Assembly: GCF_037042905.1 (NCBI RefSeq)
Contig: NC_087251.1
Location: 27,096,001 to 27,156,000, forward strand
DNA length: 60,000 bases
Direction: 5' to 3'
Source: Lytechinus pictus
Lineage: Eukaryota
The stretch's first letter is position 1. Every line of letters begins with the position of its first letter. The translations under genes and the position numbers were made by a program. This document shows, one piece after another, positions 3,141-33,636 of this stretch. The notes beneath the pieces are model-generated. The model saw only the letters and a list, made by a program, of their open reading frames with translations, was not told where the DNA came from and searched no databases.

Positions 3141-4187
3141 ATGAATTTAAGCCTAAATAACTTTGATAATGATGCAAATGCTACTCTCGGGAGCGGAGGG
3201 CATTTGACTACATTTGATACCATTCGTCTGGTTGGTCTATACCGATTTGTGTCTTGATCGAAGTGACAGTGAATATATTCTTTATCGTACTTTTCGCAAG
3301 TGATCGCGACCTTGATATCAATGAGAATGATAAGCTTCTGTACAAACTCATTGCAATTCATGATATCATATCGTCTGCTGTCCAAAAAACCTTCTTCTTT
3401 ACTTTAATGTTTGGGAAATACTTTCATGTGAATATATCTGGTTGTTTGTTATTGGCAACCACGTACGTCCTTTGTTACCAACTTTCTGCCTGGCAAGTCT
3501 GTGCAATTATCCTGAATAAGTTCATGTTCATCAAGAATCCGTTGAGATACTACAACATGGTCACTAAACGTCGGATGATAGTTTTTCTGTTGATTGGTGG
3601 GATGCTGTCTTTGAACGTCTTCATTCTGTTACCTATCAAAGATTTCCCTTGGACAAGTATCAGCAAGTGTACTGTCTTTGGGGTGATTAAACCGACAAAG
3701 CTATCAACATCACAGTTCCTGTTTTACACCTTGGGAATACTTCTTCCTGGATTCTCTCTACCCATCGTCATAGTAGCTTTCCTGAACACCCGGTTATTTG
3801 CTCTAGCTATAAAGCAAGCTAGATCTAACCGTCGTGTCGATGTGATGGCCCTTGCTAACCCTCGACAAAGTGAGGGAGAAACTCGAGCAGAGAAAGAACG
3901 AAATCGTGCTAAACTCAGAGGATACTTAAACATTTTTTATGTTGTCAATCTAGTTCTAGTAGCACTATTTGGAGCTATTTTTTGCGTTTTATTCCTGTTC
4001 ATACAACCAGATTTTCTCAACTATGACCATGTTGTATATAGACGTAGCGTTACTGTTTAGTGATGTTAGGTATGTATTTTGGTGGAGTAAAGTGAGCGTT
4101 CTTGCTCTCAGTGATGTCAAATTACGAAGAGTAGTCATGAAGCGTTTATCAGTAATATGCTGTAAATGTAAACATGGTAATCATTAA
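3141..4187 (+). pseudogene. GPCR cluster copy 1: intronless class A GPCR pseudogene (two frameshifts)
   Basis: ATG 3141 gives MNLSLNNF...DTIRLVGL, homologous to paralog N-termini, then frameshift at ~3240; ORF 3254-4060 covers TM1-TM6; a 16-nt insertion (4025-4040) moves TM7/helix 8 (DVALLFSDVRYVFWWSKVSVLALSDVKLRR) into ORF 3969-4187. Confidence 0.85.
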
Positions 4188-9015: not shown

Positions 9016-10958
9016 GCGGTAATGTACTACCTTTTGATTTTCACTGATTCGATCAGAACGGTCCCTGTAATAAAATAATCAATAAAACAAACCAGAAGAG
9101 CATTTTAGGAAGTATGAGGACAAATGGCGATTCAAAGCCACTGAAAAATTGAACAACACCACAGTGTCACGTGAGAAATGACTTTTTAAAATTATTTGTC
9201 TACTGCTGCTTGACGCCAAATAAGGAATACGTAAAACTGAGGATTACAGTTAGTAAAAGATTTAATCAAAACTCTTAAATCATTCTGTGGTCTCCTTTGA
9301 TTTCTTTTACAATGATTCACATGAAAATATACATGGATATGGATAACAAAACATAACTTAACTTAATGATAATAGTTAATGTGAGCCCCCATCATCTCAT
9401 CTGGCCTGACATGCCCCACTTGGCCCTGGTGGTCGGTCCAGTTCCTGGCCTCCGCAGCTTGCGATGTCTCTTCCACTCGGCCTTCGCAGACTGTTGCCCC
9501 TCGATGAGTAGCCCCCATATCAGAGATGTGGCTTCAACGAATTAGTGGACGAGATCGAGCCCCCAATAATGACATGAATTTTGACGAATCATGTCGGTGG
9601 AGAACCGGCGGCAGCTGGGGTCGTTATCTCGTCACCGACGTAGTCCCTCAGTTCTAACTTCGACTGCCTATAGTAACATCCGTAGTCTATTCTAGCTTAG
9701 GTGGCTCTCTCTGAATCACTGAAATTAACCTCCTAATATACCCTACCGTTACTAGGACTAACTGTAAAATTTCTATAAAGTAATTCAAAGAATTTGAGTG
9801 CATAAAGCAATACATTCTTTATAACAAAAGACTTCCTGTGCATCTGTACACCTATATTCATCAATGCTAAAGCACAGTATTAGCTATTTATGACACCTGT
9901 ATGAAAATGCTTACATAATACAAAATATTTTTAACACTAGAACAAAATATGGCATCCACCTAATCTTGTACTCTAAGGGGGGGGGGGGTATCAAACGTCG
10001 CCAACGCTTGCTTTTGAAATATTCAAAACATAATCATTTTTACCCAGGTTTAAATATTCACAACACACGAACTATCTTTATAAACTCAGAACATGAGTCT
10101 AATCAAAGGAATTAAATTAAATAAATTTCTTCCCTGACACACAGACAGTTGTATACGGTTGACAACTTCGAAATAAATTTTTCAATTTCTACACTTGCTA
10201 ACAGAATTTTAAGACAATTTGTTACCAAACTTTCCAGAGATAAGAAAGATTTATTTTCAAAAATGACATCAAGTTTGAATTTCAGCTCAAATAGCGTGGA
10301 TTATGATGGAGATGCTTCATTCGGAAGAGGAGAGCATTTGAACACAATCGACATCGTTCGATTGGTCGGGCTGCTCATTGCTTTTCTGATTGAGGTGACT
10401 GTAAACATCTTCATCATGCTTGCCGCAAGTGATCCCAACGTTGGTATCAAACAGATTGATAAAATTCTTTACAAACTCATTGCCATTCACGATGTTATAT
10501 CATTTGTTATCCATGAAGCTGCGTTCAGCACATTCATGTTTGGGAAGTACTTTCACATTAATTTATCTGGCTGTTTGATATTGGCGACCATGTATGTTCT
10601 TTGTTCTGAGCTTTCTTCGTAGCAGTTATGCGCTTTTGTTTGCTTGTTCATCAAGTATCCTTTGAGATACAACATCGTTACGAAACGTCGGATCATACGT
10701 TTTCTGTTGAGTGGTGGGGTACTGTCTCTGAACGTTATTATGCTGTTACCTATTACGGATTTCTCACTAGCAAGTATCACAGAGTGTACAATCACTGGGG
10801 TGGTTCGATCAGCAAAAATAAGAAAATCAGATTTCCTCTACTACTTTTTTGGTATGTTACCCAGTATGTCGATACCAATTATCACGATTGTTTTTCTCAA
10901 TATTCAACTGTTTAGTATCTCCATAAGCAAGCCAGGATTAACCGTCGTGTAGCTGTGA

Positions 10959-13812
10959 ATCACTCTCTGACACTTTAGAAAATTTTAAAAAAGATGATGA
11001 GATTATAGTGTTGGGGGACATGAATATTTGCCTTTCGAAAAAGTCTCCTTTATCCAAGAAATATGAGAATTTACTTAATCTAAGTGGTTTAAGCCAACTT
11101 GTAAAGCTACCCACACGTACAACTCAGACATCTTCCTCCCTGATAGATCACATATTATGTAGTAAAGAAGAGCATATTAGTCAAAGTGGTGTTATTGACC
11201 TAGGTATAAGTGATCATTTATTGATTTATTGTTCAAGAAAGATTGTCAGGCCCGTATTTGGGCACCACAGAACTGTGTCCATCAGGAGCTTAAAAGGTTA
11301 TAATGTAGATAATTTCAACTTAAATTTATCCCGATCAGACTGGTCCAAGGTAACTGAATGTAAAGATGTAAATATGGCTTGGGCAAATTTTAAATCTATA
11401 TTCTTGTCAATTATAGATATGAGCGCACCTCTGAAAGAGGTAAGAATTAAGCAATCAACTGAAAAATGGATGAACCATGAAATTATTGTTTTAATTAAAG
11501 AGAGAAATGTAGCTTACAAAAATATGAAAAGGAATATTGGCAATTTAGACCTTGAAAGGAAATATAAAGTTTTAAGGAATTTAGTTCAAAGGAAGGTAAG
11601 AAGTGCCAAAACCGAATATTTTCAAGAAAAAATCGAAGAAAACAAAAATGACTCTAGAAAATTGTGGAAGAATTTGAAAGGTTTAGGTCTAAAAAGTAAA
11701 GGGAAATCTGATAAAAAAAACGGTTATTAATGTGCAAGGTGAATTAAGTCACGATAAGGCTAAAATTGCAAATGAGTTTAATCGTTATTTTACAACTGTG
11801 GCCGACAAGTTAGTTTGTAAATTACCAGTAAATACAACAAAATTTCATGCAGAAAGTGACCAATTTCAAAAGTTTTATGAAGAAAAAAGTATTTCAAAAG
11901 GTAGTTTTCATTTTTCCCCCGTTACAGAAAAAATTTGTTTTAGATGAACTAAATAGGTTGAAAATATCAAAAAGTACTGGTTTAGATATGATACCTGCAA
12001 GATTTTTAAAAGATGGGGCAAGAAATTTGTACAAACCTTTGAATTATGTTATTAATTTATCTCTTATGTCTTCTACCTTTCCTAATGATATGAAATTCGC
12101 AAAAGTTACCCCGCTACATAAAAAGAGAGATAAAACTGACGTTAGTAATTATAGGCCAATAAGTGTATTAAGTGTAGTGTCGAAGATTTTGGAAAAATCT
12201 GTTCATGCTCAAGTGGAGAAATACTTCCAAGAAACCAAGCTTATATATAAATTTCAGTCCGGCTTTCGTAACGGATATTCCACTGAAACTTGTTTAATAC
12301 ATTTAACAGATTTTATCAGGAATGAAATTTCACATGGGCGCATGGTTGGAATGGTTCTCCTAGACTTACAAAAAGCCTTTGATACTGTAAATCATAGCAT
12401 ACTTTTAAAGAAATTAGAAGTGATGGGTTTAGACTCTGCATGTGTGACATGGTTTAGATCATATTTATCTAACCGTCATCAGGTAGTTACCATGCAGACG
12501 GTTCTTTCTGATTCACTGCCTATTAAATGCGGAGTCCCTCAAGGAAGCATTTTAGGCCCCATTCTTTTTATGTCTTACATCAATGATATGTGTACTTGTA
12601 TTAACGAATCTAAATTAATTTTATATGCTGATGATAGTGTCTTGCTATATTCAGATACAAATCCCAAGATAATTGATAAAAAACTTAGTGCAGATTTGGC
12701 TAATTGCATCGAATGGATGTCTGACAACAAGCTTAGTTTACACGTTGGGAAAACGGAAAGCATTTTATTTTGTTCGAAACGAAAGTTATGATATACACAC
12801 GATTTCAAGGTTTCATATAATAATCAGGTAATTGAAAGAAAAGATTCAGTAAGATATTTGGGAATTAATTTAACAAGTAACCTATCATGGACGGGTTTGG
12901 TAGACTCAATCGCCAAAAAGGCAAATTCACGCTTGAAATTTTTGTATAGATATCAAACCTGTTTGAATATGAAGTCTAGACGTATTTTATGCTTTGCTTT
13001 AATACAATGTTTATTCGACTATGCTAATGCGGCTTGGTACGGTAGTCTGGGTGTTACGGATAAGAAAAAGCTAAGAATAATTCAAAATAAAATTGTGAGA
13101 TATATAAATGTTTTAGGACCAAGAGCACATGTCGGATATAATGAACTTGAAAAGGCAGGATTGCTTCATGTAGATCACAGGTCACAACAATTAGTATTAC
13201 ACCACGTGCATAAAATATTCTATTCGGATAAATTAGATCATTATATAGCAAATAATTTCACCCGGGTATCAAATATCCATAGGTACGATACTCGAAATAG
13301 TAATTTTAATTTCGTATTACCAAAACGTGAAGGACATATTGGAAACACTTTTTATTTTAATGGCATCCAATCTTGGAATGCTCTTCCTGATAAAATAAAA
13401 GCCGTTAATTTTTTTTGTCAATTTAAGAGTGCATTAAAAAATCACCTAAAACTGGAAGCTGCCCGAGAACAGCATTACCAGTAAAATAACACATTTTGTA
13501 CAGTTGGTTTCTAGTATTGTAGATAATGTATACATTAGGGTATGTTAAAATATAATCTTGTTTCACATATTAGGAAGATTATTGTTTGCTTCAGATGTTT
13601 GCAAATTATATGACTGATGGATATGTTTGTATGTATTTTTCCCCCAATATTCCAGTACTTGTCGTAGTTTATATTTTTTTGTTACAATATGTTAATGTTT
13701 TATACTAACTATAGGACCCCATTGGAAATAAGCCTTTCGGCTTTCATGGGCTATCCTGTCAAGGTATTTCCTCAATTTCATTGTAATCTCCTGTGATATT
13801 CTTGACGAATAA

Positions 13813-13889
<77 letters not shown>
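10959..13889 (+). mobile_element. 5'-truncated CR1/L2-superfamily non-LTR retrotransposon (APE endonuclease C-terminal part + reverse transcriptase), inactivated
   Basis: APE motifs LGDMN, TRTT..SLIDHI, ISDH; RT motifs YRPIS, QSGFR, DLQKAFDTVNH, GVPQGSILGP, YADD; frameshifts at A-runs (~11715, ~11930), in-frame TGA 12789-12791, stop 13484; 3' UTR, AATAAA and (AATC)n tail; GTGA duplicated at 10955-10958 and 13890-13893. Confidence 0.92.
13813..13889 (+). repeat. (AATC)n microsatellite forming the LINE 3' tail
   Basis: About 19 perfect AATC units. Confidence 0.95.
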
Positions 13890-14860
13890 GTGATGGCCGA
13901 CAATTATCCAGGACAAAGCGAAGAGGAGGCTCAAGCTGAGAGAGACCGTGCCAAACTGAAAGGATATTTGAAACTTATGTTTGTCGTAAATCTAGTTCTA
14001 TGTGCTCTCGGTGGAGCATGTTTATGGGCTATGTTGGCGTACTTACAACCTCAATCTATAAATTTCGACGCATGGCTTCTTTTTTGTGATATCATCAATG
14101 TTATCTGGTGGAGTAAAGTGGGTGTTTTAGTTATCAGTGATGTCGAAGAGCAGTCATGAAGAGTTTTTCAATGATATGCAGTAAATGTCATATTTGGAAT
14201 GACTAATTGTATGCTCTTCATGAATTCATCCTCACGTTTCAGTACTATACTTCTTTGCAATGTATATGGAAAGTTATTCACTTGTGGAAGGTTGGCAATA
14301 ATAAAGATGCGTGGATGTTTTTATCGGATTTGCAATCGGACATAACCAATATAAAATCGAAGAAGAAAATTAATCAACTCATTCATTGTTCAGGGCCAGG
14401 GGGTATACTCTGAGTTTAATATTGTATACAATATTTATCTATAGCTAAAGGTTTAAACCATCAAACCTTATGGTTGATCGAATGGCAGACCTCACGTATT
14501 AATGATTGTCCCTAAATTGAAATATGAGTACCACAGGTACGATGATGATCGTAATGTAGATAAGATAGTCTCAACTCATCCACCAATAGTTGCTGGCTAT
14601 CGCATTTGAATAAGTAGTCACGACTGCACCCGACCAGTCGGCGGCAAATAGTCATGGCTTCTCTGTATCCCGGGCCGGCGCTTCCAAGCTTACGATCAGC
14701 TGTTATGTGATACATATCTTGATTACACGGGGCTTTCAGGTTTTCACATTTCAAGTCCACAGCCGGATCGGCGGGGGGGGGGGGGGGGGGGGTGATTTAA
14801 ATTGTGAACATTGGGGCCTACCAAAATCATATATCTTTGACATTGTGATGATATTTTGGT

Positions 14861-15853
14861 TTAGAATCTTATTCGTAGGAAATTCTTGGCAGCCTTCCTC
14901 AGTTTCACATCGCTAATGATGAGTATACCCATTTTGCAGCACCATGAACAGTAAGAAATGTCATTAAGACAAGCCAGGGTATAGTAACGTTTCTCCTGAA
15001 CGGTTTGCGTCATTACTGCCATTATTATCGAAACAATTAATGAAACAAGGGCCGTTTTTACGAGGTAAACGACGTTGAGAAGACCTCTACGTCTTTTGCT
15101 ACTTTGGTCGTCGCCCTGTTCTCTCTGGGAGGCCTCGATTTGGTTATGATGTGGGAGGACCAAACCATTCACCGGACGATTATTCCGTGATTGCTTTACT
15201 GCAATTGAGATAAGCGCGACATTTAGGGCGACCGTCAAGGCAATGGGAAATACAATGAAGCATAGCATAAAAATTGAGTATTTTGCAGTGACTGATGCGT
15301 TTTGCCTCGCTTTTACAGTCTCTCTTATAGAACACACGATGAGACCGGTTAAGGGAAAGTTCTTGAAAGGAAGATCACAAAGTGTATTCAAAGACAGTAT
15401 CCCGCATATCACCATGAGACTAATCGCTCGCCTTGTTGTTACCAGGTTAAAGTACCTCAGAGGAAACTTGATGAAAATTAGCTTGTTTAAAGCTATGGAG
15501 AAAAGCAGCCATGCAGAGATATTAAATCCCAACACATAGAAGAAGTGAATGACGTGGCACAAATTGGAGTTAAGATGAAAGATGGGTTGAAACGCATAGA
15601 TGATTCCTAAAATGTAGAAGACAGTGGCTGCTAATATGTCGACAAATGCGAGGCCCTTGTAGAGAACTTTCCCAACATGGGTTGATTCTGCGTCATATAT
15701 CCGTAAAAGAACGTGGATTATAAAAGTATTAAGAGCAGCTGTTATCACAAAATAAAAGGTCGAAAGCACAAAACGTACGATAATGACCATATCAAACATT
15801 TTCCCTTCTGATAAATCTTCAAGTGTGGAGTTCTTGAAACTAATATTAGCCAT
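14861..15853 (-). CDS. GPCR cluster copy 3: intact intronless class A GPCR (330 aa), inverted relative to the other copies
   Basis: Open frame from ATG 15853 (MANISFKNST, N-glycosylation sequons); seven hydrophobic segments; LAFVD, SAW...LNKLIFIKFPLRY, D-x5-W-x2-K and SDVKLRK motifs shared with the paralogs. Confidence 0.88.
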   Translation of the reverse strand: MANISFKNSTLEDLSEGKMFDMVIIVRFVLSTFYFVITAALNTFIIHVLLRIYDAESTHVGKVLYKGLAFVDILAATVFYILGIIYAFQPIFHLNSNLCHVIHFFYVLGFNISAWLLFSIALNKLIFIKFPLRYFNLVTTRRAISLMVICGILSLNTLCDLPFKNFPLTGLIVCSIRETVKARQNASVTAKYSIFMLCFIVFPIALTVALNVALISIAVKQSRNNRPVNGLVLPHHNQIEASQREQGDDQSSKRRRGLLNVVYLVKTALVSLIVSIIMAVMTQTVQEKRYYTLACLNDISYCSWCCKMGILIISDVKLRKAAKNFLRIRF

Positions 15854-16449
15854 CGTCACTGTAGGTTTTACACACGTACTGCTGGCACAATGCACACAGT
15901 GACCCTTTCCTTGGTTGAATTTCGAATACTTTATTTCAGATTCACTAATCGCGAAGCCATGATCGCTTAAGAACTATCGCGGTTATCATGTTTGTATCTG
16001 TTTGAATATCCTATTAAGTCCGGGGTTTTTGAAATAAAATCTTCGTCGACATTCATTGCCAATGGTGTCCGCAGACGGAGGAGACAGAAATTTGACAGGC
16101 ATTTATATTACACAGTCAGCGCAATAAGGACGAGAGTAATAAACCGCTTTCTAATTAGGAAAGTGTCAGTTCATGGCGACTTCAAGACAGATATGTGACA
16201 TCACAAACGACGTCATTTTTTATAATTGCAAAATGCCAGTTAATAAAGTGTTTGATATCAGGAATGTGTCATCTGCGAGGATTTCAGACGCAGGTCAAAA
16301 TGTGTACTTTGCGGCTTGATGTCGAAAAAAAATTACTTTTAATGTAGGATATGGATTGCGGTCTGTTCATATTTGATTTGTAATCGTTTTTCTGATACGA
16401 GTAATGAGATCACATAGGGTTGAAAAGAAACATGATATAGTGTGGCTGA

Positions 16450-16555
16450 TTGTGTGGGTGTGTGTGTGTGGGTGGCCGTGTGTGACGGTGTGTGTTAGGG
16501 TGAGGGTGTGTGTGTGTGTGTGTGTGGATGGCCGTTTGAGGGTGTGCGTGTGCGT
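16450..16555. repeat. Imperfect (TG)n microsatellite
   Basis: Direct inspection. Confidence 0.85.
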
Positions 16556-16649
16556 CTAACAGAGTATGTTTTTTATATGTTACGGCACTGACAAAACATA
16601 AAGAAAAATACGCAAATAAAAAAAAGTAGTATCCATACAGGCATCTTCT

Positions 16650-16990
16650 CAGAGTGTCATATCCTGATCCTTTATTTTGTAGACTAAAAACATTAAAAGT
16701 TACTGATATTCATAAAATGCGAATTGCAATTTTTATGAATCACTTGAATAAAAGTGAGTTACCGTTATCATTTCATGATGATTTTACTTTGAATAGAGAC
16801 ATTCATAGCCATCCTACTAGACATTCATTTGGTTTTCATTTATTTACTCCCAGGAGTGCCTTAGCCCATAAATCAATAACATATGTGGGACCTAACATTT
16901 GAAATTCACGACCTTTAAATATAAGAATTTGTAACAATATTGTACCATTCAAGAAGAATAGGAAGGACTTATATCTCCCCAAATATTATA
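16650..16990 (+). mobile_element. CR1/L2-type LINE ORF2 C-terminal fragment
   Basis: DPLFCRLKTLKVTDIHKMRIAIFM...HSHPTRHS...SITYVGPNI, similar to the 8100-8450 remnant. Confidence 0.65.
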
Positions 16991-17648
16991 AATTATATTT
17001 CTCTAAATTAAAATTATATTTCATTTCATTTTATTCAAGATGCGAATGATGTCCATATCTAAATATGCTATAGAGGCATTATTTCAGTTATTGTATTGAT
17101 TCCCCCCCCCCCCCGGTTTTTGTGAATGCTTATTTCGAGCCATGTATATTTAAACGAGTTACTTACATACGATGTTATTTACTGCACTTCAAACGTTTTT
17201 TTTTTTGCGTAGTTTCTTTTGTGTGTTATTATTATTAATGTTGCATTATATTCTGTCAATTTATTTCTTGTTATGCGTGGTGAAAAATTAAACCAAAAAA
17301 ATCGGGAGATTGTACGTATCACGGGAAGGAGGGGGGGGGTTATATTGAATAAAACCATCAAGAGAGACTGATGATTAGAAGGGCATTTAACGACGCTATT
17401 CAATTTCCGTAATGTACAGTGGAGTCACGGTTAACCGACAAAGCGCATTATGCTCATTATGAAATAAGCCAGAATCATAAGAAAAAATATCAAAAAATCA
17501 ATTGATAAGTGGTATCGCGACAGTTTAAAAAAGGCGGCAAATAGGCCTCATGCATTTTTTTGCTACAGCCTGCAAAACCATCATAAAAAAAAACCACACA
17601 ATTTCATCAATAGTGAACTTCAAGTTTAATTCAGGAAGGTTTCAAACC

Positions 17649-18671
17649 ATGGCGCCATACGACTCTGTTGAATATCATGCGAATTCTACCCAATACCTAG
17701 TGGACAATTTCACGCCTGTTGACATCGTTCGGCTTATCGCTTTGCAGCTTTTCTTTATGATAGTTTTGGTTTCAAACATTTTCTTCTTCTTTGTCATCGT
17801 AAGTGATCGCGAAGTTGAAATAAACCAGATTGATAATTTTCTCTACAAAATCATGGCCTTTCACGACATCATATCGTCTGCTGTCCACACAGCTCTTTTC
17901 AGCACTTTCATTTTCGGCGAGTACTTTCAAATCAGCATATTTGCCTGTTCCATACTGGGTACTTTGTTCGTTCTATGTTATGAACTTTCTGCGTGGCAAG
18001 TATGTGCTATTATCTTAAACAAACTTTTGTTTATCAAATGTCCTTTGAGGTACTACAGCATCGTATCTAAGCGCCGAGTTGTTGGTTTTTTGTTGATTGG
18101 CTTTGTGCTGTCTCTAAACGTCGTCATGCTTTTACCTTTCGAAGGATTCCCTTTGACAAGTATCATCAGATGCACCGTTTTTGATATTCTACATCCGATC
18201 AGTGTACCAAAAGACCTGCTATATCTTGGCTTCACAATACTATCATTGGGATTCTGCGTACCAGCCATTGGAATAGTGTTTATGAACTTTGCAGTGGTAA
18301 CATTGGCCATCAAACAAGTCAGGTATAATCGTCGCACACATATCGTGGTCAAGAATAACCCAGAGAATAATGCGGACGAATATCGAGCTCAACGAGACCA
18401 ACATCGCACAAAACTCAGAGGATATCTAAGCATCATGTATCTCATAAATCTATCTTTACTCGTTATGCTGGTAGGAAATATCCATTCTATTTTGCTATAT
18501 TTTGAGCCAGAATATGTCAATTTTGATGTAATGCTGGTTTTCAATGATGTTGTGAATTTCCTCTGGTGGAATAAACTGGGAGTATTCGTCTTTAACCATG
18601 TTAAATTGCGAAGAGTTGTCAAAAAGCGTTTGGTATTAATGTGCTGTAAATGTAAATTTCGAATAGACTAA
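17649..18671 (+). CDS. GPCR cluster copy 4: intact intronless class A GPCR (340 aa)
   Basis: ORF 17550-18671; ATG 17649 preferred (ACCATGG context, aligns with the copy 5 ATG); 7 TM segments and family motifs. Confidence 0.9.
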   Translation: MAPYDSVEYHANSTQYLVDNFTPVDIVRLIALQLFFMIVLVSNIFFFFVIVSDREVEINQIDNFLYKIMAFHDIISSAVHTALFSTFIFGEYFQISIFACSILGTLFVLCYELSAWQVCAIILNKLLFIKCPLRYYSIVSKRRVVGFLLIGFVLSLNVVMLLPFEGFPLTSIIRCTVFDILHPISVPKDLLYLGFTILSLGFCVPAIGIVFMNFAVVTLAIKQVRYNRRTHIVVKNNPENNADEYRAQRDQHRTKLRGYLSIMYLINLSLLVMLVGNIHSILLYFEPEYVNFDVMLVFNDVVNFLWWNKLGVFVFNHVKLRRVVKKRLVLMCCKCKFRID

Positions 18672-19187
18672 ATTCCCTCACGGGGGTGTTTCCCCAAAGG
18701 TCTCTCCTCCCGCTATAACTGATAGGGGGATTACAGGTGGACCACTACACCGCCCCCCCCCCCTACGCTTATACGAATAGTGCAGTGGGTTCTTAACGTG
18801 CAAAGATGGTGACTCTCCTCTACACGGGGCCTCCATTTAACGTCCTATCCAAGGGACGGAGTGTATTAAACTGTATAGCCTGCATCTGTTCCCTGGAACA
18901 GGGATTGACGTTTCCACAGATGTACGAACTATACTGCAGATATGTTTTCGTGCCTATGAAATAATCCACATTTTCAATGGTGTTTCGACGTTGGACTTAA
19001 TGACCCTAACCAAGTAATGACCAAATGTTAAATTTACATTCAGCGAAAAGAATGTTAATCTCTATAATGATTGGATTTCATATTTACCTGATAAAAAAGA
19101 TTGGCAATCTGATTTAGTTACTAAGTACCGTATTGTATTAAGTTATCTTTACGCGACTTCAAGTTAACTGACTAAACATTGGTTTAA

Positions 19188-19331
19188 TTTCAAGAAAGTA
19201 AAAATTTTGATGCAGTGTTGGTTTTCAGTGATTTTGCAAGTTTTATCTGGTGGAATAAATTGAGTGTTCTCGTATTCAATGATGTCAATTTACGAAGAGC
19301 AGCTAAGCGTATTTCGGTAATGGTTCGATGA
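19188..19331 (+). pseudogene. Orphan GPCR gene fragment (TM7 + helix 8)
   Basis: Manual translation from 19203: NFDAVLVFSDFASFIWWNKLSVLVFNDVNLRRAAKRISVMVR*, clearly homologous to paralog C-termini; not in the ORF track. Confidence 0.8.
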
Positions 19332-19470
19332 ATCTCTATAGGCCTATTTAAAATACCTGAATTTCAGTACCTGCTTACACTCATATTCAATTCGTCACGA
19401 ATAATATTCAGAATTATGGAAGGTCACATGATTAAAGTCCGGCTGCAGAGCTCCTACCCCTTGCTATCCT

Positions 19471-19771
19471 GACTTTTCGCATTTACTACGGAGTCACTCT
19501 CTACAACGTACCAATTCTTTTAAAAAGGCAAGTCAAATCACAATGGAGAGGCTTTTGTCGAAGGTTGGTGGACCGGGGCAGCATCGGAATCGCTTGACGC
19601 TGGACAACGACATATTTGCAATTGTTCGTCCGGTGCAAATCTTCAGACGATCTGCTTTCCCAGTCCACACCAACTTTCGACAAAAGCCTTGGGCTCTCCA
19701 TTGTGATTTAAATTGCATTTTCAAAGGAATCGATGCGTTGTAGAGATTGTCTCCGTAAAATGCGAGAACTC
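19471..19771. mobile_element. Palindromic MITE with imperfect inverted arms of more than 100 bp
   Basis: e.g. AAATCACAATGGAGAG..GGCTTTTGTCGAAGGTTGGTG versus CACCAACTTTCGACAAAAGCC..CTCTCCATTGTGATTT. Confidence 0.7.
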
Positions 19772-19825
19772 CCTATTGCTGCGGATTCTATGACACACAA
19801 TTTAAATCCACTTCGTTCTGATTAA

Positions 19826-20097
19826 AGGCCCTGGTCCCACTGGCCGACGGACACGAAACGTATTCATAACGGATATAGTAGACAAGCAAAATTTCGGGGT
19901 GGCTCCATCCGTTTTCATCCGCTCCAGACATTAGACAAAACAATGAAATCAGTACAGTGGACGGATGCTCGATGGGTATAGAGCGAAACACGTATGCAAA
20001 TAGTACACAACGGATACATAACGTTTTCCAACGGATGGCAAGATTCTTTTCCGCTTTACATCCTCTCTGCATCCGTAAGTGCAGTGGGACCAAGCCT
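19826..20097. mobile_element. MITE (PIF/Harbinger-like)
   Basis: TIRs AGGCCCTGGTCCCACTG / CAGTGGGACCAAGCCT flanked by TAA. Confidence 0.65.
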
Positions 20098-22279
20098 TAA
20101 GTTCTTAACTGCTGTCAGAATTATTTATCTTTCGATGGACATTTAAGGTGAACATATGTATTCCAATTAACTCCTCTAACTTCAACACGGTAATTCCAAA
20201 TAATTTGAGTCGAAATTGTATTCTTTAAAAAAATCAAAAATTCGAAAAGAACAATATTTCTACTAGGTAAATACCAACTACATACTTATTTGTTTTAACC
20301 TATTATAGAACGGTTGCAGCTTTACAATACATTAATGTAAAACCTGTTTTCATTTTGTTCTTTCAAGTGATAAAGAATGACTCGCGACATGAATTGTTAG
20401 TTCTTATCCATCATAGTCATGATGTCGGATATTTGTAAAGCTAAATTAGGGTGAATAAAAGTATAACATTCAATTCACTTTTCATTTTCATTTCAATGTG
20501 TTTACTGCTTTACTAATACAATGACTGGGTTTATTCGTTGCTTAATATAAAAAAAAATGGTACTAAATTATCTCCTTAATTCTAGGTATTTTAATATGAT
20601 TTAACTTTGGGGTTAAAAACGTCCGTTAAAATATTTCGTTAAAATGTTTACTGCAGATTTAAATTAAACTTCTCGTCTTTAATTTCTCCTGTCTCCCTCT
20701 TTTACTTTATCTAATTCTATTAATGTTGTGCGATATAAAAACAATTAACATTTGATAATTATTGATTATTTGAATGAGTGACGTTTTCATGTGTTTTTGT
20801 TAACCACAGGAGAAAGCCAAATGTGTCTCAACCGCATAGCTGAAGTTGAAATATGCAAATGTTCATCGCTAGTTATAACTGTCAAATCACATTTCAGGGC
20901 AAAGTTTTTTTGTTTGTTTTTTTAGTCTCGGGAGCCAATAGGCTGCAGTCATATTGAATGCTAAATTAGTTTCTGGTGCCTTACCCAGAATGCATAATTT
21001 TCATCACGTCATCATATGACGTATATCAAACGGGAGGAGAGATTACTCCCTAATAACACAGTTTCAAGTGAAAATCAAATAGCACACACTGTATAAGTAC
21101 CGATCTTATACCGTCCTTTGTATGTTATATATATAAAACTAGTTTATACCACATGATTCTAATAAAGGATCCCCTATTAACGGAGGACAGTCTCCCTTTA
21201 ACATAAATTTGGTTTATAAATTAAACACATTCGATCTTCTTTGATACTTTGGAGTTACATTTTGGGCACTTTATTTATATTCCTATTTATTTATGTGTAC
21301 ATCAATGTTTGATTTTATTTACATGTATGGTATTGATGTTATTTGTTGTAATCTTGATTCTCTTTTAATTAGGTCATTGATGAAAATCAGCTTTTTGCTG
21401 ATCTTTTGTACCTGAATAAATATATTCTGATGAATAAATAAATGTGCGTTACTTTACGGAAATTATTAGGGAACGTTACCTATCTGCAGTGCTAGTTACC
21501 CACATGTTAAAAAAATATATATTTTCAGTTGTTTCACTTCGTGTGTGTTTTATGAGAGTGTGGAAGAGTGGGGGTGCTTGCGTGTGGGTGTATATGTGTT
21601 GCCGTTTTCGCAACCAAGTGGGATCGGGATAATTTCCCCAGCTCCAGTTACCCGATTTGGAAGGCAACGTGAGTATTTCGGGCATGCGCAGTGGCAAATA
21701 TATCACGTCACTCGCAATAGCTTGACATTCAGTCTGACGATTGAAAGCTGCCAAATAATGCTACCCAGTGGCACAAAAAAAAACACCCAAAAATGCTAAT
21801 AAAGAACGACACCGACCAACGGAAGGTATTTCTTTGAAAATTAAGTAATAGTTTTTGTTTGTTTTTCAGTCTGTTTTGGGGGAAGGGGGGGGGGGGGGGT
21901 TGAGAAAACTGTACTCACGTCACGGTTTACTACTCTAAAATATGATCATAATATGCTATTTAATTTCGGTAATGTACCGTAACTCCACGGACTGACAGAA
22001 TTTACGGACAATGCACAAAATGTTCATTATTAAATCAGTCAACGCAAACCATACAACGAGATAAGAAATTCTTTAAAAAGAAAGCAGAGGAGCATATAGT
22101 TAACGTCCAAATTATATGTATTCAAAGATAAAGTGCATCGCGATCTCACAACAGTTTGGAGAGAGTACGTAGCGATTTTTCACTTTTGCGCCACGTTCTC
22201 AACTACAACACCACAAATACTTTCTAAAACAGTAAATATGGATTTAAATTCAAATGTTATAACAGACATGTTTCAAATC

Positions 22280-23306
22280 ATGTCTTCATATATACGACTC
22301 TGTTGAATATCATGCAAATTCTACCCAATACCAAGTGGACAATTTCACGCCTGTTGACATCGTTCGGCTTATCGCTTTGCAGCTTTTCTTTATGATAGTT
22401 TTGGTTTCAAACATTTTCTTCTTCTTTGTCATCGTAAGTGATCGCAAAGTTGAAATAAACCAGATTGATAATTTTCTCTACAAAATCATGGCCTTTCACG
22501 ACATCATATCGTCTGCTGTCCACACAGCTCTTTTCAGCACTTTCATTTTCGGCGAGTACTTTCAAATCAGCATATTTGCCTGTTCCATACTGGGTACTTT
22601 GTTCATTCTATGTTATGAACTTTCTGCGTGGCAAGTATGTACTATTATCTTAAACAAACTTTTGTTTATCAAATGTCCTTTGAGGTACTACAGCATCGTA
22701 TCTAAGCGTCGAGTTGTTGGCTTTTTGATGATTGGCTTTGTGCTGTCTCTAAACGTCGTCATGCTTTTACCTTTCGAAGGATTCCCTTCGACAAGTATTA
22801 TCAGATGCACCATTTTTGATGTTTTACATCCGATCGGTGTACCAAAAGACTTATTATATCTTGGATTCACAATACTATTATTGGGATTCTGCGTACCAGC
22901 CATTGGAATAGTGTTTATGAACTTTGCAGTCGTAACATTGGCCACCAAGCAAGTCAGGTATAATCGTCGCATACATATCGTGGTCAAGAATAACCCAGAG
23001 AGTAATGCGGACGAATTTCGAGCTCAACGAGACCAACATCGCACAAAACTGAGAGGATATCTAAGCATCATGTATCTCATAAATCTATCTTTACTCGTTA
23101 TGCTGGTAGGAATTATACATCCCATATTACTATTTGTTAAACCCGAAACTGTCAATTTTGATGTATTATTGATTTGTAATGATGTCATAAATTTCCTCTG
23201 GTTGGCTAAACTGGGAGTTTTCGTCTTTAACGATGCTAAATTACGAAGAGTCGTTATAAAGCGTTTGATATTGATGTGCTCTAAATTTAAACGCTCTAAA
23301 GACTAA
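22280..23306 (+). pseudogene. GPCR cluster copy 5: near-identical paralog of copy 4 with an N-terminal frameshift
   Basis: ATG 22280 is followed by an extra TATA (ATG TCT TCA TATA TAC GAC versus ATG GCG CCA TAC GAC in copy 4), giving an early TGA; the remainder (22335-23306) is an open 323-codon frame with no in-frame ATG until TM1. Confidence 0.75.
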
Positions 23307-23343
23307 AATCCCCATACCGTGGGGGGGGGGGGGTTCATGTGCT

Positions 23344-24494
23344 CAGTGGCGTACCGTGGGTCACGGTATTGGGGGGGGGGGGGGGGCACCAGCAAAAATT
23401 TTGAGTCACTTTTGAGCGAGCTGCCAGGTCTACTGACCTAATAGAGGCATTTTAAGGACAATGCTTTTAAACGGATATGTATCTCACTGATCAAATAATG
23501 CGAGCGCGAAGCGCGAGCTGAAAATTTTTGATATTCAGACCCAAAAAGGGACATTATAATCAGATTTTTGTAATCATGATACGTACCTGTCTCGCTAAAC
23601 AATGCGACCGCGAAGCGCGAGCTGAAATTTGTGTATATATTGACCCCAAACATGGAGATTTTAAGGACTATATTTTAGTAATCCATTAAGATTATACATA
23701 TCTCACCATAGTCATCTTAGCGAGTACCAAGCGCTTGCTGATTTTGTTAGAATTACATCTAAATACATGAAGTACTTGTAGTCATTGTAATCATGAATCT
23801 CATACGCATCTCACTAATCGAATATTGCGAGCGCGAAGCTGAAAATTTAGTTATTCAGACCTGAAGATAGTCATTTTAAGGCTTGTTTGTAGGAATTCAC
23901 GAAGACCATACGTATTTCCTTAACCAAGTAATGCGAGCGCGAAGCCCGAGCTGAAAATTTTTGATATTCTGATCAGAAAAAGGGACATTTTAAGGACTGA
24001 TCCGTATTCATGGAGAGCATGCATATCTCACCAATCAACTAATAAGGACGTAATCACGGACAGGAAATGTCTTATATTAAGACCTTAACATGGGGCAATC
24101 AATTCTAAGTAGTCATGAAATAGAAGCATATATTACTACATAAAATAATAACTCGAAGTTCGAGGAAATATATTTGGTGTATATTGACTTGAAAACGGGA
24201 GGTTTCAGTACAACAGGATCATATATCTCATTAAACAGACAATGCAAGCACCAGGAACAGTGAAGACATATGCCCTGATAAAATTATGTGAAATAAATTT
24301 TCGATAAAAATGTTTCTATGTATAATATAACATAACAAAATTATAATATAACATTATAATGAATAATAAGTTTTTCTTTTCCACTTCGTTTCTCTTCCTT
24401 TCTCCATCTTTTTCTCCTTTTCCCGTTTTTTTTGGTCAGCCGATTGGGGGGGGGGGCACGTGCCCCCCATGCCCCCACCCCGCGTAGTTACGCC
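23344..24494 (+). mobile_element. hAT-like non-autonomous element (CAGTGGCGTA family), right TIR clipped
   Basis: Starts CAGTGGCGTACCGTGGGTC, repeated GCGAGCGCGAAGCGCGAGCTGAAA units, ends GTAGTTACGCC; homologous to 52242-53024. Confidence 0.85.
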
Positions 24495-25152
24495 TTTTCC
24501 CTATTGCTTCAACAGCGTTGCACTGGATTTTATATGGCTCAAATCAAGTTTTGGCAAATAATATATATATAATAATATATTTTGCATTCAGATGCTTGTC
24601 AACAACAAGAATTCAATCTTCAAAGATCTGACATCTGCTTTGGCTAATAAGAATAAAACTAATAATTTAGACCCAGAAATATGATTCGGTCGTGCGCAAC
24701 TTATAAACAACACCGAGAGGCCATACTGATGCATGCCGGGGTGATACTGGGTGACGGTATACAAAAAAGATGTATTGTAACATATCTCTGAATAAATTGC
24801 CCCCATTTATCTATATTGATAGATCGGTCTTCAGTTAAAAGCTTGGGCAGTGTGGGAATCATTATTTATCAAATAAAAAAGTCATACATCGAGAACAAAC
24901 TTGAGCTTTAACAAGATACGATGAGCTTAAAATCTTATCCTCTGGAATATATTATTTCCATTTTCGTCCACCTATTTTTCATGAACATTGTATTAATAGG
25001 ATCAAAGTGAATAGTATCCCTTATCAAGACCCACTGTTTATTTTCTAAACAATCTTTATTTTTTACTTTTCTTAATATCGGAGGTGGTTAAAACCCCCAC
25101 ACTTAAAATGTTGGGCAACAAACTGTCCACTGTGTTGGGTAATGTATATTGG

Positions 25153-25183
<31 letters not shown>

Positions 25184-28100
25184 TCTAGGAAATTATTACC
25201 AGCAAACTTATCACCCAATTATTAGCTTTTATTACCCAATTGGACAGACTTTAACCAATAGTTGTGTGGACAGTGTGTTACCCAATGGTGGTTAAAAATT
25301 GGGGCCTTATTTGCCCAACCCTTTTTAGAGTGCATAAAAAAACAACCTATGCGTGTTTTTATGTTATTTTTTTCTTTTAAATGTATTTGTATTGTCAAAT
25401 AGTATTTACATATACGGATAAGGGATGCTGAAGTAAGAAAAGAAAAAAAAATTGTGTTACGTTGAATCATAGTATACTGTATAATTCTACAAACAAATAT
25501 CGAATTGAAATTATATCTATATTACACACTGTAAAAATATTGGGTAAAATTTTTATCACCATGAGGGAAATTATGTGTCCAACTAATTTGGGGCAGTATT
25601 TTTCCCAATGCGGCAAGCATAATTATTGCCCAGTAAGGTTAAAAATTAAGCAGCCATTACTTTAGAATGGGCAAAATTTTCATCACACTGGATAAATAAA
25701 AAAGACCCAGAAGAAATGCCCAACATCTTGAAGCACTTTTACCCAACATTTTTAATGTACTTTTACATCACTCCTCTTTGACAAATCCTCTATAACAGAT
25801 TAAACGCAGCCTATCTTACTGTTTTGTAAATCCCCCAAATACGCATGTCACATTCATTTCTAGATAATTTGAATGTTTCAAAAAGTTATGATGTGGAGAA
25901 TTTGAAATTTAAAACAAAAGGGTTTTACAGGATATACTTTCAAATTTCATATGAAATTTATTATTTTTGTAATTGTTGTTTTTAAATATGCATTTGATTA
26001 TTCCCTATGTATATATACAAACCGCTGTATGTATGCTATTAATAATAGTGCAGACAGAGTCGTTGTAATTATGTAACTGTAAATACTACATTGTGTAGAC
26101 TAGAAATGAATGAATAATAAAATAAAATATTTTTGTTAAATTTATCTTACATACAATATTTGAATCGTTATCTTGTATATATATATATATTTGTATACCA
26201 TGGGTATGAATATATTGTCTTGATTGTATAAATTTTTGTATATTGCATAAACATACGAAGCTTGACCCCATTAGTAGTCTTCAAATATTTTATTGAACAT
26301 TGTTAATTTATATTTGTATTTGATAAATTTTAATCAGTTATTTATTTCAGGGGACTCACATAAACAAGCGAAGCTTTCCAGTGAGTTCCCTTTTTTTTCA
26401 TTTCTGTTATTCATATTGTGTTTTGTTCCTACTTACTTTGTCAATTTGTTTGAAATGAAGAAAAAAATAAATTCAATCAATCAACTACAAGTACATGATG
26501 TATGTATGACGCTTTTCATGCGTAAGTGCGTGGCTGCTTGTATGCATGAAAAGTGACCCTTTGTACTAAAACGTATGCAAAACGGTCTCAAAATTTATGT
26601 GAATGTAAGTATTGTTGAGAGATATTCGCAACAGATATACAGACGCTTTTTGGAAACTAAAATATCTATTGGCAAATGACCTTTATGAAAACGAAGTCTT
26701 TGTCGAGTGTCGGTGAAATGACAAAGACCTCCCGGGTTTTCATTGCGATAGGGTTGATTCTGCGTTGCAGTGCGAAAACTCACTATTGTCATCTGTGGTG
26801 GAACCAACTGCCTTGATCGGGCTCGGAATGGTACCGAAGAACAATGGTCGCGTTAAACTGTTTTCCTTTATTCAGGACTGCACGAATAAATGACGGCATG
26901 ACAACACGGAGAACTAGTTATGGACGTATACATGAACTGAAACAGCTGGGACTCGCAAATTTATGCATTTCAATCTACGGTAGATATGAACTGTGTGTGT
27001 GTGTGTGTGTCAGAATTCGCAAGAGACGAGCATGTACTATTTTTTATAAACAGGGGTTCAAATTGAGTCCAAAATAATACAAGTTTTCGCTTAACTTGTC
27101 ACCAACTGTACCATTTCCAGGACATTATAAGACATTTTTAATTTAAAATAAAGAGGAACAAATTTTGTGTGATAATCATCGATGTGCAAATGAGGGGGGT
27201 GGGGTGAGAGCTTCACAGAATTGGAAAGAGGGATGGCGAACAAGTCAATTGCTTCAGTGAAACAACCAATTTGAACAAACGCACATTCACAATGTGTATC
27301 ACACTGCGGGAAATGTCCTCATTTCACATGGTAAGTATATGTGATATGGAGCATGTCGAATAATCCACACACTGTGAAACACAGTGTAACTGTGTGTTTG
27401 TTAGAATCCCTTACAGAACCCCTTCCTATTTTGGTATTGAACACACACCCTCACACCCTCGCACACATACACCCCTCAAACACACACACACACCGTTACA
27501 AACCACTATAACGTGTGGGATTAAAAAGTGAAAAAATATGAAAAGAACTTGAAGAAAAATGGGTAGTCATAATAAAATAAAATAAAATGGAAAGGAAAGG
27601 AACGCACAAGAAATGTGGTTAGTTAAAAATGGGAGATCGAGAGAGATGGGTGGACGAGTAACGAAATATCTTCTAATTTAATGCACTTTAAAACGCTGTT
27701 TAAAAGTTTAAACACGTTGTTAAGCTTGTCACTCAAACAAGTTTTTTACAGTTTTAAACACGTTGACTGACGTATAAAGTGCTTCAATATTGGTACTGTG
27801 AAGAAGTAAATAAATCTGTAAACAATAAAATAATGTATATTTCAAACAAAAAACAAAAGAAACAGTGTGTGATGGACACCTTCGACTGACTCATTTACAT
27901 GTCATTTATGAAAAATATGCGAAACTTTAAAATACCATGCTTTCTTATTTTACATCCGATTTTGACAGTTTGATTTTTCTCTAATCAACATTTATCTGGG
28001 GTGGACTTGACCTTTAAATTAAAAAGCGAAATTCACCAAGTGTCCTCGTAGCCCCGAGATCTTGTTGGCTTCCGTTCTCCTTGAACATGAAACGATGATT

Positions 28101-28891
28101 GTCGATTCTTGATTTAGATCAAATGTGATATCCCATTCTTCATGGCAAACTTTTCAAATATCTTCTGACAGTACTTTTATATCACCTGTCAAAGATGTTT
28201 ATTGGCTTGTCTTATAGTATTAAAGTATAGACTTGGAACGCCATTCAGTTTCTTCAAAGTCATTGGTAGCGGATTCAAACATATATTAGTCACGTACTTG
28301 AGTCATAAACGAGCAAAGTCGAAACATCTAAGGCCGCTGGTTGGTTGGTTGAGGTGACGAAAATTCATGCAAGATTGGGAAGCCGCTTCTTCTCGTTTAG
28401 TTATTGACGTGTTTTGCTCAGCTTACACTATCCGTTTTTAGGAATTTCATCTAAAAATCAAAAGAACGCTAATTCTGTGAAACATTTTCGTCACCTGATT
28501 ACCGATATCATCTGAAACTGACAAGTTCGTCTCTTTCGTTCAACTGCATGTTACTCTGTAAAATTGACCAAAACCTTCACAAAAACTTCGAACGTTGCAT
28601 CACACGCATTATATCTTGTTACATGTGCTAGTTCTGTCATTTAGCAGGTTTGATGGCTCAGCAACGAACAGATGCTCAAACGCTGCTCAAAAAGCGGTAG
28701 GAGTCTATGGTATCTGAAAACAAAAACTCAAAGGCTCAATTAACGTATTCATTCATTGTAGGGCCTACCAGTGTCGTTTCAACAATCTCTTTTTATTCAT
28801 TAATTTACTTATTTTTTAATTTTGAGCTCTTTCTCATTTTTTTTACCATTGTCAAACACAATATTTTTTTAAAACATTATAGTAAAATATA

Positions 28892-29899
28892 ATGGAAAGC
28901 TACAATCATTCTGGTGGACAGAGCGTGAGTTTGACCATGGATATCGTTGATGTTGCTCGACTAGTTTGCATGCAGGTTTACTGTTGCATCGAAGTTGCTC
29001 TCAACGTTTTCATCCTCATAGTCCTTGCGAATGACCACGACATCGACTTTATCCAGATCGACGTGTATCTTTACAAACTTCTCGCAAAAATTGACATCAT
29101 CTTGTCAATAATTTATGACGCCACATTATCTGCAATTTTCTTGGGTAAATATCTATATATCCCTGTAGTTGCTTGTCTGACAATATCGACTATATGTTTC
29201 TTCATTTTTCAACTCTCTGCCTGGATGTTATGTTCTGTCGCGTTGAACAAATTTATATTCGTGAAGTATCCATTACGGTACCCCAGTATGGTTAAACGCC
29301 GTCAAGTGATAGGCTTTCTGGCAGTTGGTGGGATTGTTTCGCTTCTTGGAGAAATCTGTGTTTTGCCATTTAAGGGGTTTCCATTTGCAGGCTTAGAATA
29401 CTGTTCTGTCCTTGGTATCGTAGAATCTTTTCATGAAACCGCTTCGCCGTCGAAATTTGCATTCATCTTTGTCGTTGTGATCGTTCTCTCTATACCATTT
29501 ATCCCCACAGTACACCTGAACTTTGCACTGATATCCACAGCCGTGAAACTGGCTCGGTCAAATCGTCGAGTAGCAATGATGGGCAACAATCAACTTAACC
29601 AAGACTTGGAGCAAACTCCAGCTGAACATAATAGGAATCGTGTAAAGATAAGAGGTCTCCTATCCGTTAATTACATTCTTAACTTAGCTCTAATTCTGCT
29701 CCTCTCGACAAGTATAGCTACGTGTGTTATTTTTCATCCAGGAAATGTAAGCTATAACGCACTTCTGCTTACTTATGATTTCTTCATGATGTTGTGGACA
29801 TGTAAAATTGGTGTTCTGATCCTAAGCGATGTGAAGATAAGAAAAGCAGCTAAAAGATATTTAGTGTTTGGTCTAAAAATCTTTAGAATATGTGATTGA
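28892..29899 (+). CDS. GPCR cluster copy 6: intact intronless class A GPCR (335 aa)
   Basis: Complete ATG-to-stop ORF; N-terminal NHS sequon; 7 TM; LAKID, SAW..ALNKFIFVKYPLRY, DFFMMLWTCK, SDVKIRK. Confidence 0.9.
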   Translation: MESYNHSGGQSVSLTMDIVDVARLVCMQVYCCIEVALNVFILIVLANDHDIDFIQIDVYLYKLLAKIDIILSIIYDATLSAIFLGKYLYIPVVACLTISTICFFIFQLSAWMLCSVALNKFIFVKYPLRYPSMVKRRQVIGFLAVGGIVSLLGEICVLPFKGFPFAGLEYCSVLGIVESFHETASPSKFAFIFVVVIVLSIPFIPTVHLNFALISTAVKLARSNRRVAMMGNNQLNQDLEQTPAEHNRNRVKIRGLLSVNYILNLALILLLSTSIATCVIFHPGNVSYNALLLTYDFFMMLWTCKIGVLILSDVKIRKAAKRYLVFGLKIFRICD

Positions 29900-32608: not shown

Positions 32609-33636
32609 ATGGCTGACATGATGACCACCGCAAATTATTCTTTTGGACAGGATGGAATGTCGGTTGTCGATGTTGCTCGGCTTGTTATCTTGCAGGTCTA
32701 TTTTTGCACCGAAGTAGCTCTCAACGTTTTTATCCTGGTCGTCCTCACAAATGACCGCGACATTGACTTTATCCAGATCGATGCATATCTCTACAAACTT
32801 CTAGCTTATGCAGATATTCTTTCTTCATTCCTGTACAACGCAACTTTTTCTGCAATAATTTTGGGTGGGTATTTTCATATTAATGCAGATGCTTGTGGGA
32901 GTAGTTTGGCCATATTTCTGTTCGCTTTTCAACTGTCTGCTTGGATACTCTGTTCTGTCGCCTTAAACAAATTCATTTTCATCAAGTATCCTCTGAAGTA
33001 CTACAGCATAGTGACCAAGCAGCGAATGATGGGGATCGTTGCAGCGGGAGGGATTCTCTCCCTAGCAGGGGTAATTGGTATTACTCCTTCGAAAGGTTTT
33101 CCATTCGCAGATGTAGATCACTGTTCTCTGGATGAATACTTGCGACATTATAACCAAATCGTTTTATCAGCTCAATTTATATTCGTTGTCATCGTCATAC
33201 TTGGTGTATCTACGCCTATTGTTTTTACCATGAGTTTAAACTTTGCACTTATGTACGTTGCCGTTACACATGCTCGGGCAAATCGCCGATTGACGGCAAT
33301 GGCTCCGAATCAAATTGACCAAAACGAAGCCGAAACTCGAGATGAACATGATCGCAACCGCGTGAAGTTAAGAGGACTCCTGAATGTGTTAAACCTCCTG
33401 AACTTAGCTTTAATTATACTTTTTTCGTCGACCATATTAATTTGTATTACCTACTTCAACCAGATAATGTGAATGTTAAGACCGCCATGTTTATCTATGA
33501 TATTCCAATGCTGTTGTGGATATGTAAAGTTGGTGTTTTGATTGTAAGTGATATGAAAATGCGCACAGCAGCCAAAAGATGCTTATCAGTAGGTCTAACG
33601 TTATGTAAAACCAGAGACACAAGTCTGCAAATCTAA
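32609..33636 (+). pseudogene. GPCR cluster copy 7: class A GPCR with a single frameshift before TM7
   Basis: ATG 32609, open through TM6; frameshift at ~33445-33452 puts LQPDNVNVKTAMFIYDIPMLLWICKVGVLIVSDMKMR in ORF 33442-33636; closest to copy 6. Confidence 0.8.

Follow-up and report, generated by a model that had tools for sequence, protein, structure and literature searches.

A lysine at position 7.49 in a tandem family of sea-urchin class A receptors, a likely stand-in for the allosteric sodium ion

The window analysed here, 60,000 nucleotides (nt) of Lytechinus pictus (NCBI RefSeq assembly GCF_037042905.1, contig NC_087251.1, positions 27,096,001 to 27,156,000 of the forward strand), carries a tandem array of single-exon genes for G-protein-coupled receptors of class A. 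A combination of tblastn and open reading frames (ORFs) identified three intact copies, four broken ones and one fragment limited to the seventh transmembrane helix (TM7) region (Table 1). All of them share a TM7 lysine that occupies position 7.49, the place of the Asn of the canonical NPxxY motif, and that is likely to mimic the sodium ion at Asp2.50. An earlier reading made from the letters of this DNA (below, the sequence-only reading) had given the array as 14861..29899; the tandem array is real, and its actual span is wider, from about 3254 to 33636.

Copies 3, 4 and 6 are the only intact ones, each consisting of a single ORF of 330–340 amino acids (aa). Among the broken copies, copy 1 has a frameshift at its 5' end and a 16-nt insertion ahead of TM7, and the ATG of copy 5 (22280) is out of frame owing to a 4-nt insertion directly after it. 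Of six copies compared with Pfam 7tm_1, five exceed the gathering score and copy 6 falls short of it (25.7 vs 30.5 needed). The dN/dS ratios are 0.17–0.37 in the 8/15 pairs with unsaturated dS, and the receptor family is evidently under purifying selection. Copy 2 is split at the end of TM5 by a long interspersed nuclear element (LINE) retrotransposon, of which parts of the endonuclease and of the reverse transcriptase are recognisable and which ends in an (ATCA)n tail.

Table 1. Features of the receptor array and its surroundings (positions in the window; ICL, intracellular loop; superscript-free numbers in brackets are class A positions)
Feature	Position	Strand	Evidence	Remarks
Copy 1, broken 7TM gene	3254..4187	+	Pfam 7tm_1, E 4.2e-11	True 5' end somewhat upstream of 3254; D-x5-W-x2-K retained in TM7
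Copy 2, 5' part (TM1-TM5)	10290..10931	+	tblastn	Stop codon and deletions in TM3/ICL2
LINE retrotransposon within copy 2	10942..13890	+	RVT_1, E 4.5e-33; Exo_endo_phos	
Copy 2, 3' part (ICL3-TM7)	13884..14147	+	tblastn	Helix 8 with 7-nt deletion
Copy 3, intact single-exon class A receptor, 330 aa	14861..15853	-	7tm_1, E 4.5e-12	D72 (2.50), K124 (3.50), D298, W304, K307 (7.49; codon 14933-14935)
Copy 4, intact, 340 aa	17649..18671	+	7tm_1, E 1.5e-09	K309 (7.49; codon 18573-18575)
Orphan fragment of a further copy, TM7 and helix 8 only	19191..19322	+	tblastn	
Copy 5, 90% identical to copy 4	22280..23306	+	tblastn	
Copy 6, intact, 335 aa	28892..29899	+	7tm_1, E 9.9e-06, under Pfam cut-off	R23 (1.35), D68 (2.50), S109 (3.39), K120 (3.50), D296, W302, K305 (7.49; codon 29804-29806), D313 (8.47)
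Copy 7	32609..33636	+		TM7 motif retained; small frameshifting insertion between TM6 and TM7
BTB-BACK-Kelch (KLHL-type) gene exons	45562-48801	-		

The motif D-x5-W-x2-K, which the sequence-only reading had reported in all eight TM7s, has eight matches when all six frames of the window are scanned, each within a TM7 (8/8) and none elsewhere, so that a chance match or a misreading is ruled out. The downstream x(G/S)(V/I)(L/F)xx(S/N)(D/H) is likewise present in 8/8, and the basic helix 8 holds in 7/8, the exception being copy 2, whose helix 8 is not basic because of the 7-nt deletion there. The other motifs described in that reading largely stand: NK(F/L) occupies the DRY site wherever TM3 is intact (6/7 copies, copy 2 being deleted there), P-x7-N places Asn5.58 in TM5 in 7/7 copies, D2.50 and C3.25 are retained in 7/7, and S-A-W, with S3.39, is found in 6/7, copy 2 reading S-S-stop instead. 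No copy has CWxP in TM6; the claim that TM6 has no proline at all fails for copy 5, which carries one towards the outer end of the helix, at about 6.55, not at 6.50. These receptors keep the class A hallmarks N1.50, D2.50, C3.25 with the Cys of the second extracellular loop, and P5.50. They lack the canonical microswitches: N-K/R-x stands for DRY, W6.48 and P6.50 are missing, K7.49 is found without P7.50 and Y7.53, and 5.58 is Asn. Canonical DRY, CWxP, NPxxY and Y5.58 are typical of class A, not obligatory. The exclusive use of AAA for the TM7 Lys was considered as a signal and rejected, AAA accounting for 31/46 Lys codons in the intact copies.

The assignment of this Lys to 7.49, proposed by eye in the sequence-only reading, is firm. 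In a 161-row MAFFT alignment that includes NPxxY receptors, the Lys shares its column with Asn7.49, and a profile-profile alignment in which 18 such receptors served as the partner pairs it with the same residue (overall probability 99.7). The AlphaFold models of copies 3 and 6 concur, as both end TM7 and start helix 8 around the Asp located at Lys+8, a distance equal to the 7.49-to-8.47 spacing of the aligned relatives that have Asn7.49. Two relatives, P0007 and P0015, have W-W-K in place of the W-W-N seen in their closest outgroups. A register that equates the copy-4 W-W-N with that of the relatives, and so puts the Lys at 7.50, was rejected since helix 8 lies 11 away from the Lys, just as it does from Asn7.49; it is also contradicted by P0007 and P0015, whose W-W-K lies in the same column. 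Upstream of the Lys, the confidence of the profile-profile alignment is low and a 2-residue gap is opened, as it is in a second MAFFT alignment with NPxxY receptors. For this reason the numbering of the Trp as 7.46 and of the Asp as 7.40, although the simplest reading, is less certain and may be off by one or two.

The model of copy 6 (predicted local distance difference test score, pLDDT, 86.8; predicted template modelling score, pTM, 0.84) shows the seven transmembrane helices of a class A fold, followed by helix 8. Class A receptors head the list of its structural matches (Z 24.8, root-mean-square deviation 3.5, 285 aligned), and Foldseek against the PDB returned generic aminergic and adenosine receptors sharing 13–18% identity.

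Homologues of the array were collected by a first search, which gave 2 proteins among 8000 scored candidates, and by a hidden Markov model (HMM) search of representatives and two further searches, which gave the rest. The resulting clade set has 34 rows, several of them near-identical, and the counts given here cover the rows that reach a given helix. The outside rows were drawn from the best 150 of 443 family-profile hits and are not a sample of all receptors; 49/135 of them were excluded from TM7 counts for want of a credible TM7, leaving 86. Named members come from Strongylocentrotus, Lytechinus pictus, L. variegatus and Diadema setosum, the last belonging to a different order; the Strongylocentrotus member XP_011680854.1 is a fragment without TM7. 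Their database names are automatic ('uncharacterized', 'GPR161-like', 'beta-3 adrenergic-like'). The Lys itself is kept among homologues elsewhere, from three named sea-urchin genera. None of the 594 pattern matches of a metagenome scan was confirmed as a relative, and the ESM Atlas gave only generic 7TM clusters. The members P0001, P0009 and P0175 (23921) and P0004 (23920), as well as P0153 and P0018 (11815), lie on like-sized contigs, which suggests similar tandem arrays in other assemblies.

Lys7.49 is found in 26/26 clade rows reaching TM7, where it is never swapped, even for Arg, and in 0/86 outside rows. The clade has an ultrafast bootstrap of 100 in a 46-row tree from which the six diagnostic columns had been taken out. 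Asp2.50 is present in 25/25 rows reaching TM2, Ser or Thr3.39 in 24/24, and an aromatic residue (W or F) at 7.46 in 26/26, neither W nor F being among the eight commonest residues there outside the clade. Position 3.50 is basic in 24/24 rows, with 23 Lys and an Arg in Diadema; Lys3.50 occurs in 1/135 outside rows. The residue at 2.54 is S, A, G or L. Nine full-length members, which share 19–80% identity (median 25%), agree throughout in 19 columns, of which three are charged: D2.50, K7.49 and, on the cytoplasmic side, R6.32. Asp2.50 is thus the sole invariant acid of the membrane core and Lys7.49 the other invariant core charge. By contrast, Asn5.58 and the loss of Pro7.50 and Tyr7.53, which the sequence-only reading had taken as distinctive, were over-read: they are common in relatives that keep Asn7.49 (Asn5.58 in 61/128 outside rows; Pro7.50 lost in 28/86 and Tyr7.53 in 30/86), are therefore not family-defining, and were rejected as family-specific traits.

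Among the 86 outside rows, 7.49 is Asn in 60, His in 18, Gln in 4 and Arg in 1. The His7.49 relatives (P0019, P0029, P0031, P0039 and others) mostly have HPxxE or HPxxQ for NPxxY and, judging by these motifs, represent another natural rewiring of NPxxY. The Arg belongs to P0115, which reads W-I-R-P-I-I-Y, the rest of its group having Gln. Within the clade, P0007, P0155 and P0171-P0174 form a Lytechinus-to-Diadema orthologue group (55% identity) with Lys7.49, Phe7.46, Asp1.43 and Gln3.43; its outer pocket is conserved, and the group is the best candidate for ligand finding.

A buried Lys requires a counter-charge. The established sodium pocket of class A receptors has 2.50, 3.39 and 7.49 in its lining, a point also made in PMC10063554. 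As D2.50 and K7.49 are the only invariant charges of the core, and as precedents are provided by engineered N7.49K receptors and by the receptor DP1 (see below), a built-in cation acting as an inactive-state brake can be inferred. The operation of the receptors might be viewed as follows. The amine of the Lys would reach Asp2.50 and Ser3.39 as a stand-in for the allosteric sodium ion, while the Trp or Phe before it would pack on the Lys chain and fill the room that the missing Phe6.44 and Trp6.48 have vacated. Loss of Asp3.49 raises basal activity in class A receptors, and the brake exerted by the Lys would offset it. A ligand bound in the variable outer pocket would then shift the proline-free TM6 as a rigid helix, and this shift would expose Lys or Arg3.50, Leu34.51 and Arg6.32 to G-alpha. 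The complete scheme, in which a Lys7.49-Asp2.50 bridge replaces sodium, provides a salt-insensitive basal brake and leaves G-protein coupling without NPxxY, is given about an even chance. That an old clade would have fixed the Lys7.49 lock that silences engineered receptors, G proteins yet being activated by a new route without sodium-site collapse, NPxxY, CWxP or Tyr5.58, is put forward more tentatively and has somewhat less than even prospects.

The idea of a sodium mimic itself has precedent in the papers cited here. In the oxytocin receptor, N7.49K (N325K) was selected along with S7.46C (PMC8060309, PMC7439316); the Lys was reused in V1B as N334K (PMC10350018), and in NTR1 N7.49K (N365K) was found in 80% of evolved clones (PMC10063554). 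For a stabilised alpha1A adrenergic receptor (alpha1A-AR) carrying N322K, a bridge to Asp2.50 was proposed (bioRxiv 10.64898/2026.08.10.743833). These receptors have the same residue at the same position as the clade, with Asp2.50 kept, and the oxytocin receptor was also changed at 7.46. They are, however, artificial and stability-selected, they keep P7.50, Y7.53, CWxP and DRY, and alpha1A-AR was silenced, whereas the Lys of the clade is natural, fixed over three genera and accompanied by the loss of the other switches. The human mu-opioid variant N334K (7.49) is among those whose potency and efficacy were improved by a modulator (PMC13309543), and its signalling is therefore not irreversibly dead. 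Human DP1 has a natural Lys, K76 (2.54), that takes the place of sodium at D2.50; this receptor has no W6.48, DRY or NPxxY and still couples to Gs, and its pocket Lys is called unique among class A receptors (PMC12508460). Unlike that of the clade, the DP1 Lys comes from TM2 and also contacts the agonist, D7.49 and P7.50 are kept, and the lineage is unrelated. No natural Lys7.49 was found in the open-licence literature, where forms like K305(7.49) would escape the search, so that its absence from print is not shown.

Several observations weigh against the bridge as a working brake. Asp2.50 is also retained in 119/131 outside rows, which makes its invariance weak evidence by itself. The inner half of the receptors is more conserved (0.40 vs 0.21), yet canonical receptors are alike (0.40 vs 0.28), and this conservation was rejected as proof of coupling. 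In two raw-read RNA runs (a quarter of the reads of each), depth is below 1 on all repeat-free gene bins. Some members have a second acid in TM1 (E1.46 or D1.43) as a possible partner of the Lys, and the two models conflict on the TM7 kink before it: TM7 is broken just ahead of the Lys in the copy-6 model, whose input alignment included Asn7.49 relatives, and unbroken in that of copy 3 (clade members only in the alignment; pLDDT 74). N7.49K is reported to give a signalling-incompetent alpha1A-AR (bioRxiv 10.64898/2026.08.10.743833). The clade jointly lacks D3.49, Y5.58, F6.44, W6.48, P6.50, P7.50 and Y7.53. This combined loss and the silencing of alpha1A-AR would suit a bridge that forms but locks the receptors permanently off, leaving them to serve, without G proteins, as ligand sinks or as partners of other receptors in trafficking or heterodimers; atypical chemokine receptors with an altered DRY (ACKR1-4, including Lys3.50 in ACKR2) are G-protein-silent. 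However, unlike ACKR1-4, the clade has retained Asp2.50 as well as the residues that contact the G protein: P34.50, L34.51, R6.32 and G6.33 occur in 9/9 full-length members, I or V at 3.54 in 9/9 and A5.65 in 7/9, this retention extending across 19–25% identity. Arrestin-driven scavenger receptors have a Ser/Thr-rich C-terminal tail, to which the clade is a poor fit, since its tails past 8.51 have only 11–21 residues and 0–4 Ser/Thr (11 rows; 11–19 residues and 0 Ser/Thr in copies 3, 4 and 6). Moreover, the Diadema member combines Arg3.50 with Lys7.49, and DP1 signals despite a comparable motif loss. Permanently locked receptors are accordingly considered unlikely, and the 'G-protein-uncoupled' signalling raised as a possibility by the sequence-only reading is not favoured, given the canonical contact residues, the Diadema member and the Gs coupling of DP1.

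A purely structural repacking would also account for part of these data. Without Pro7.50, TM7 might be a straight helix, and the Lys, instead of entering the sodium site, might pair with an acid of TM1, bind backbone carbonyls or reach the cytoplasmic side. The change would then have no particular link to sodium and would belong to a chemoreceptor lineage that drifts fast. The unbroken TM7 of the clade-only model and the TM1 acids of some member subsets are consistent with this, as are the bulky Trp or Phe at Lys-3, which fits a canonical sodium pocket poorly, and the tolerance of relatives for His, Gln and Arg at 7.49. But no TM1 acid is universal, copies 3 and 4 and P0005 being without any; both models fix 7.49 relative to the helix-8 junction, and the Lys is unreplaced in 26 rows along with S/T3.39 in 24/24, so that repacking is held to be rather improbable. 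The TM7 Asp bears on another alternative, in which the Lys would be a moving switch or sensor, like K2.54 of DP1, shifting away from Asp2.50 towards a deep agonist or sensing protons or anions, the Asp anchoring a cationic ligand. Besides the DP1 precedent, this would be helped if the 2-residue gap were real, the Asp then lying at about 7.42 and facing the main pocket. Position 7.49, however, lies well beneath the orthosteric pocket, and pairwise identity is 0.06–0.36 at 18/19 other pocket positions, a variability that hardly points to a ligand common to all members. The Asp itself is found in 18/26 aligned clade rows and in one further fragment, where a gap has shifted the alignment; it is restricted to an inner branch and travels with Arg1.35, the Lytechinus-Diadema (P0007) branch having neither and P0015 the Arg only. 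Hence the binding of a cationic ligand, proposed for an Asp described as invariant, is not favoured, and a moving switch seems very unlikely. An internal Asp-Arg1.35 pair, which would tie TM1 to TM7, is no less probable than ligand binding and rather the likelier of the two, although the co-occurrence is weak evidence because it amounts to about one evolutionary event.

The bridge between Lys7.49 and Asp2.50 would matter beyond this family. The gating of class A activation by the sodium pocket and NPxxY has been studied mostly by mutation, and N7.49K recurs in laboratory evolution. A natural Lys7.49 clade with a G-protein contact surface offers a direct test of whether signalling needs collapse of the sodium pocket, and it points to second-site changes that possibly permit K7.49, i.e. 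the aromatic 7.46, a small 6.44, the proline-free TM6 and Asn3.49. If the bridge exists and G proteins are still activated, it would be a second, independent natural sodium mimic, provided by a TM7 Lys as opposed to the TM2 Lys of DP1, and a natural template for receptors that are both stabilised and signalling. These considerations apply to orphan receptors, and motif loss is frequent in invertebrate chemoreceptor expansions.

The family consists of sea-urchin orphan class A receptors, probably with a chemosensory function. The array fits the description of the surreal and echinoderm olfactory receptor (OR)-like receptors, with which it was compared by description. According to PMC7042368 and PMC5442662, these are also sea-urchin, single-exon, tandem, rhodopsin-type orphans whose outer pocket varies and whose genes turn over by birth and death; the motifs of the family were not found in a receptor context in the supplements of these two papers. 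The OR-like receptors of sea cucumber, as reported by Marquet et al., commonly keep the N, P and Y of NPxxY and the R of DRY, unlike the clade with its K7.49, W/F7.46 and mostly K3.50.

Two contig-level runs from two studies suggest that copy 3 is transcribed; their RNA nature is a guess, no matching run being on record as RNA. One of these probable RNA runs covers the whole ORF of copy 3 with a single contig at ~95% identity, copies 4, 6 and 7 being at zero depth, and the other contains copy 3 in pieces, plus copy 5-like pieces. The array is flanked in the window by the KLHL-type exons listed in Table 1.

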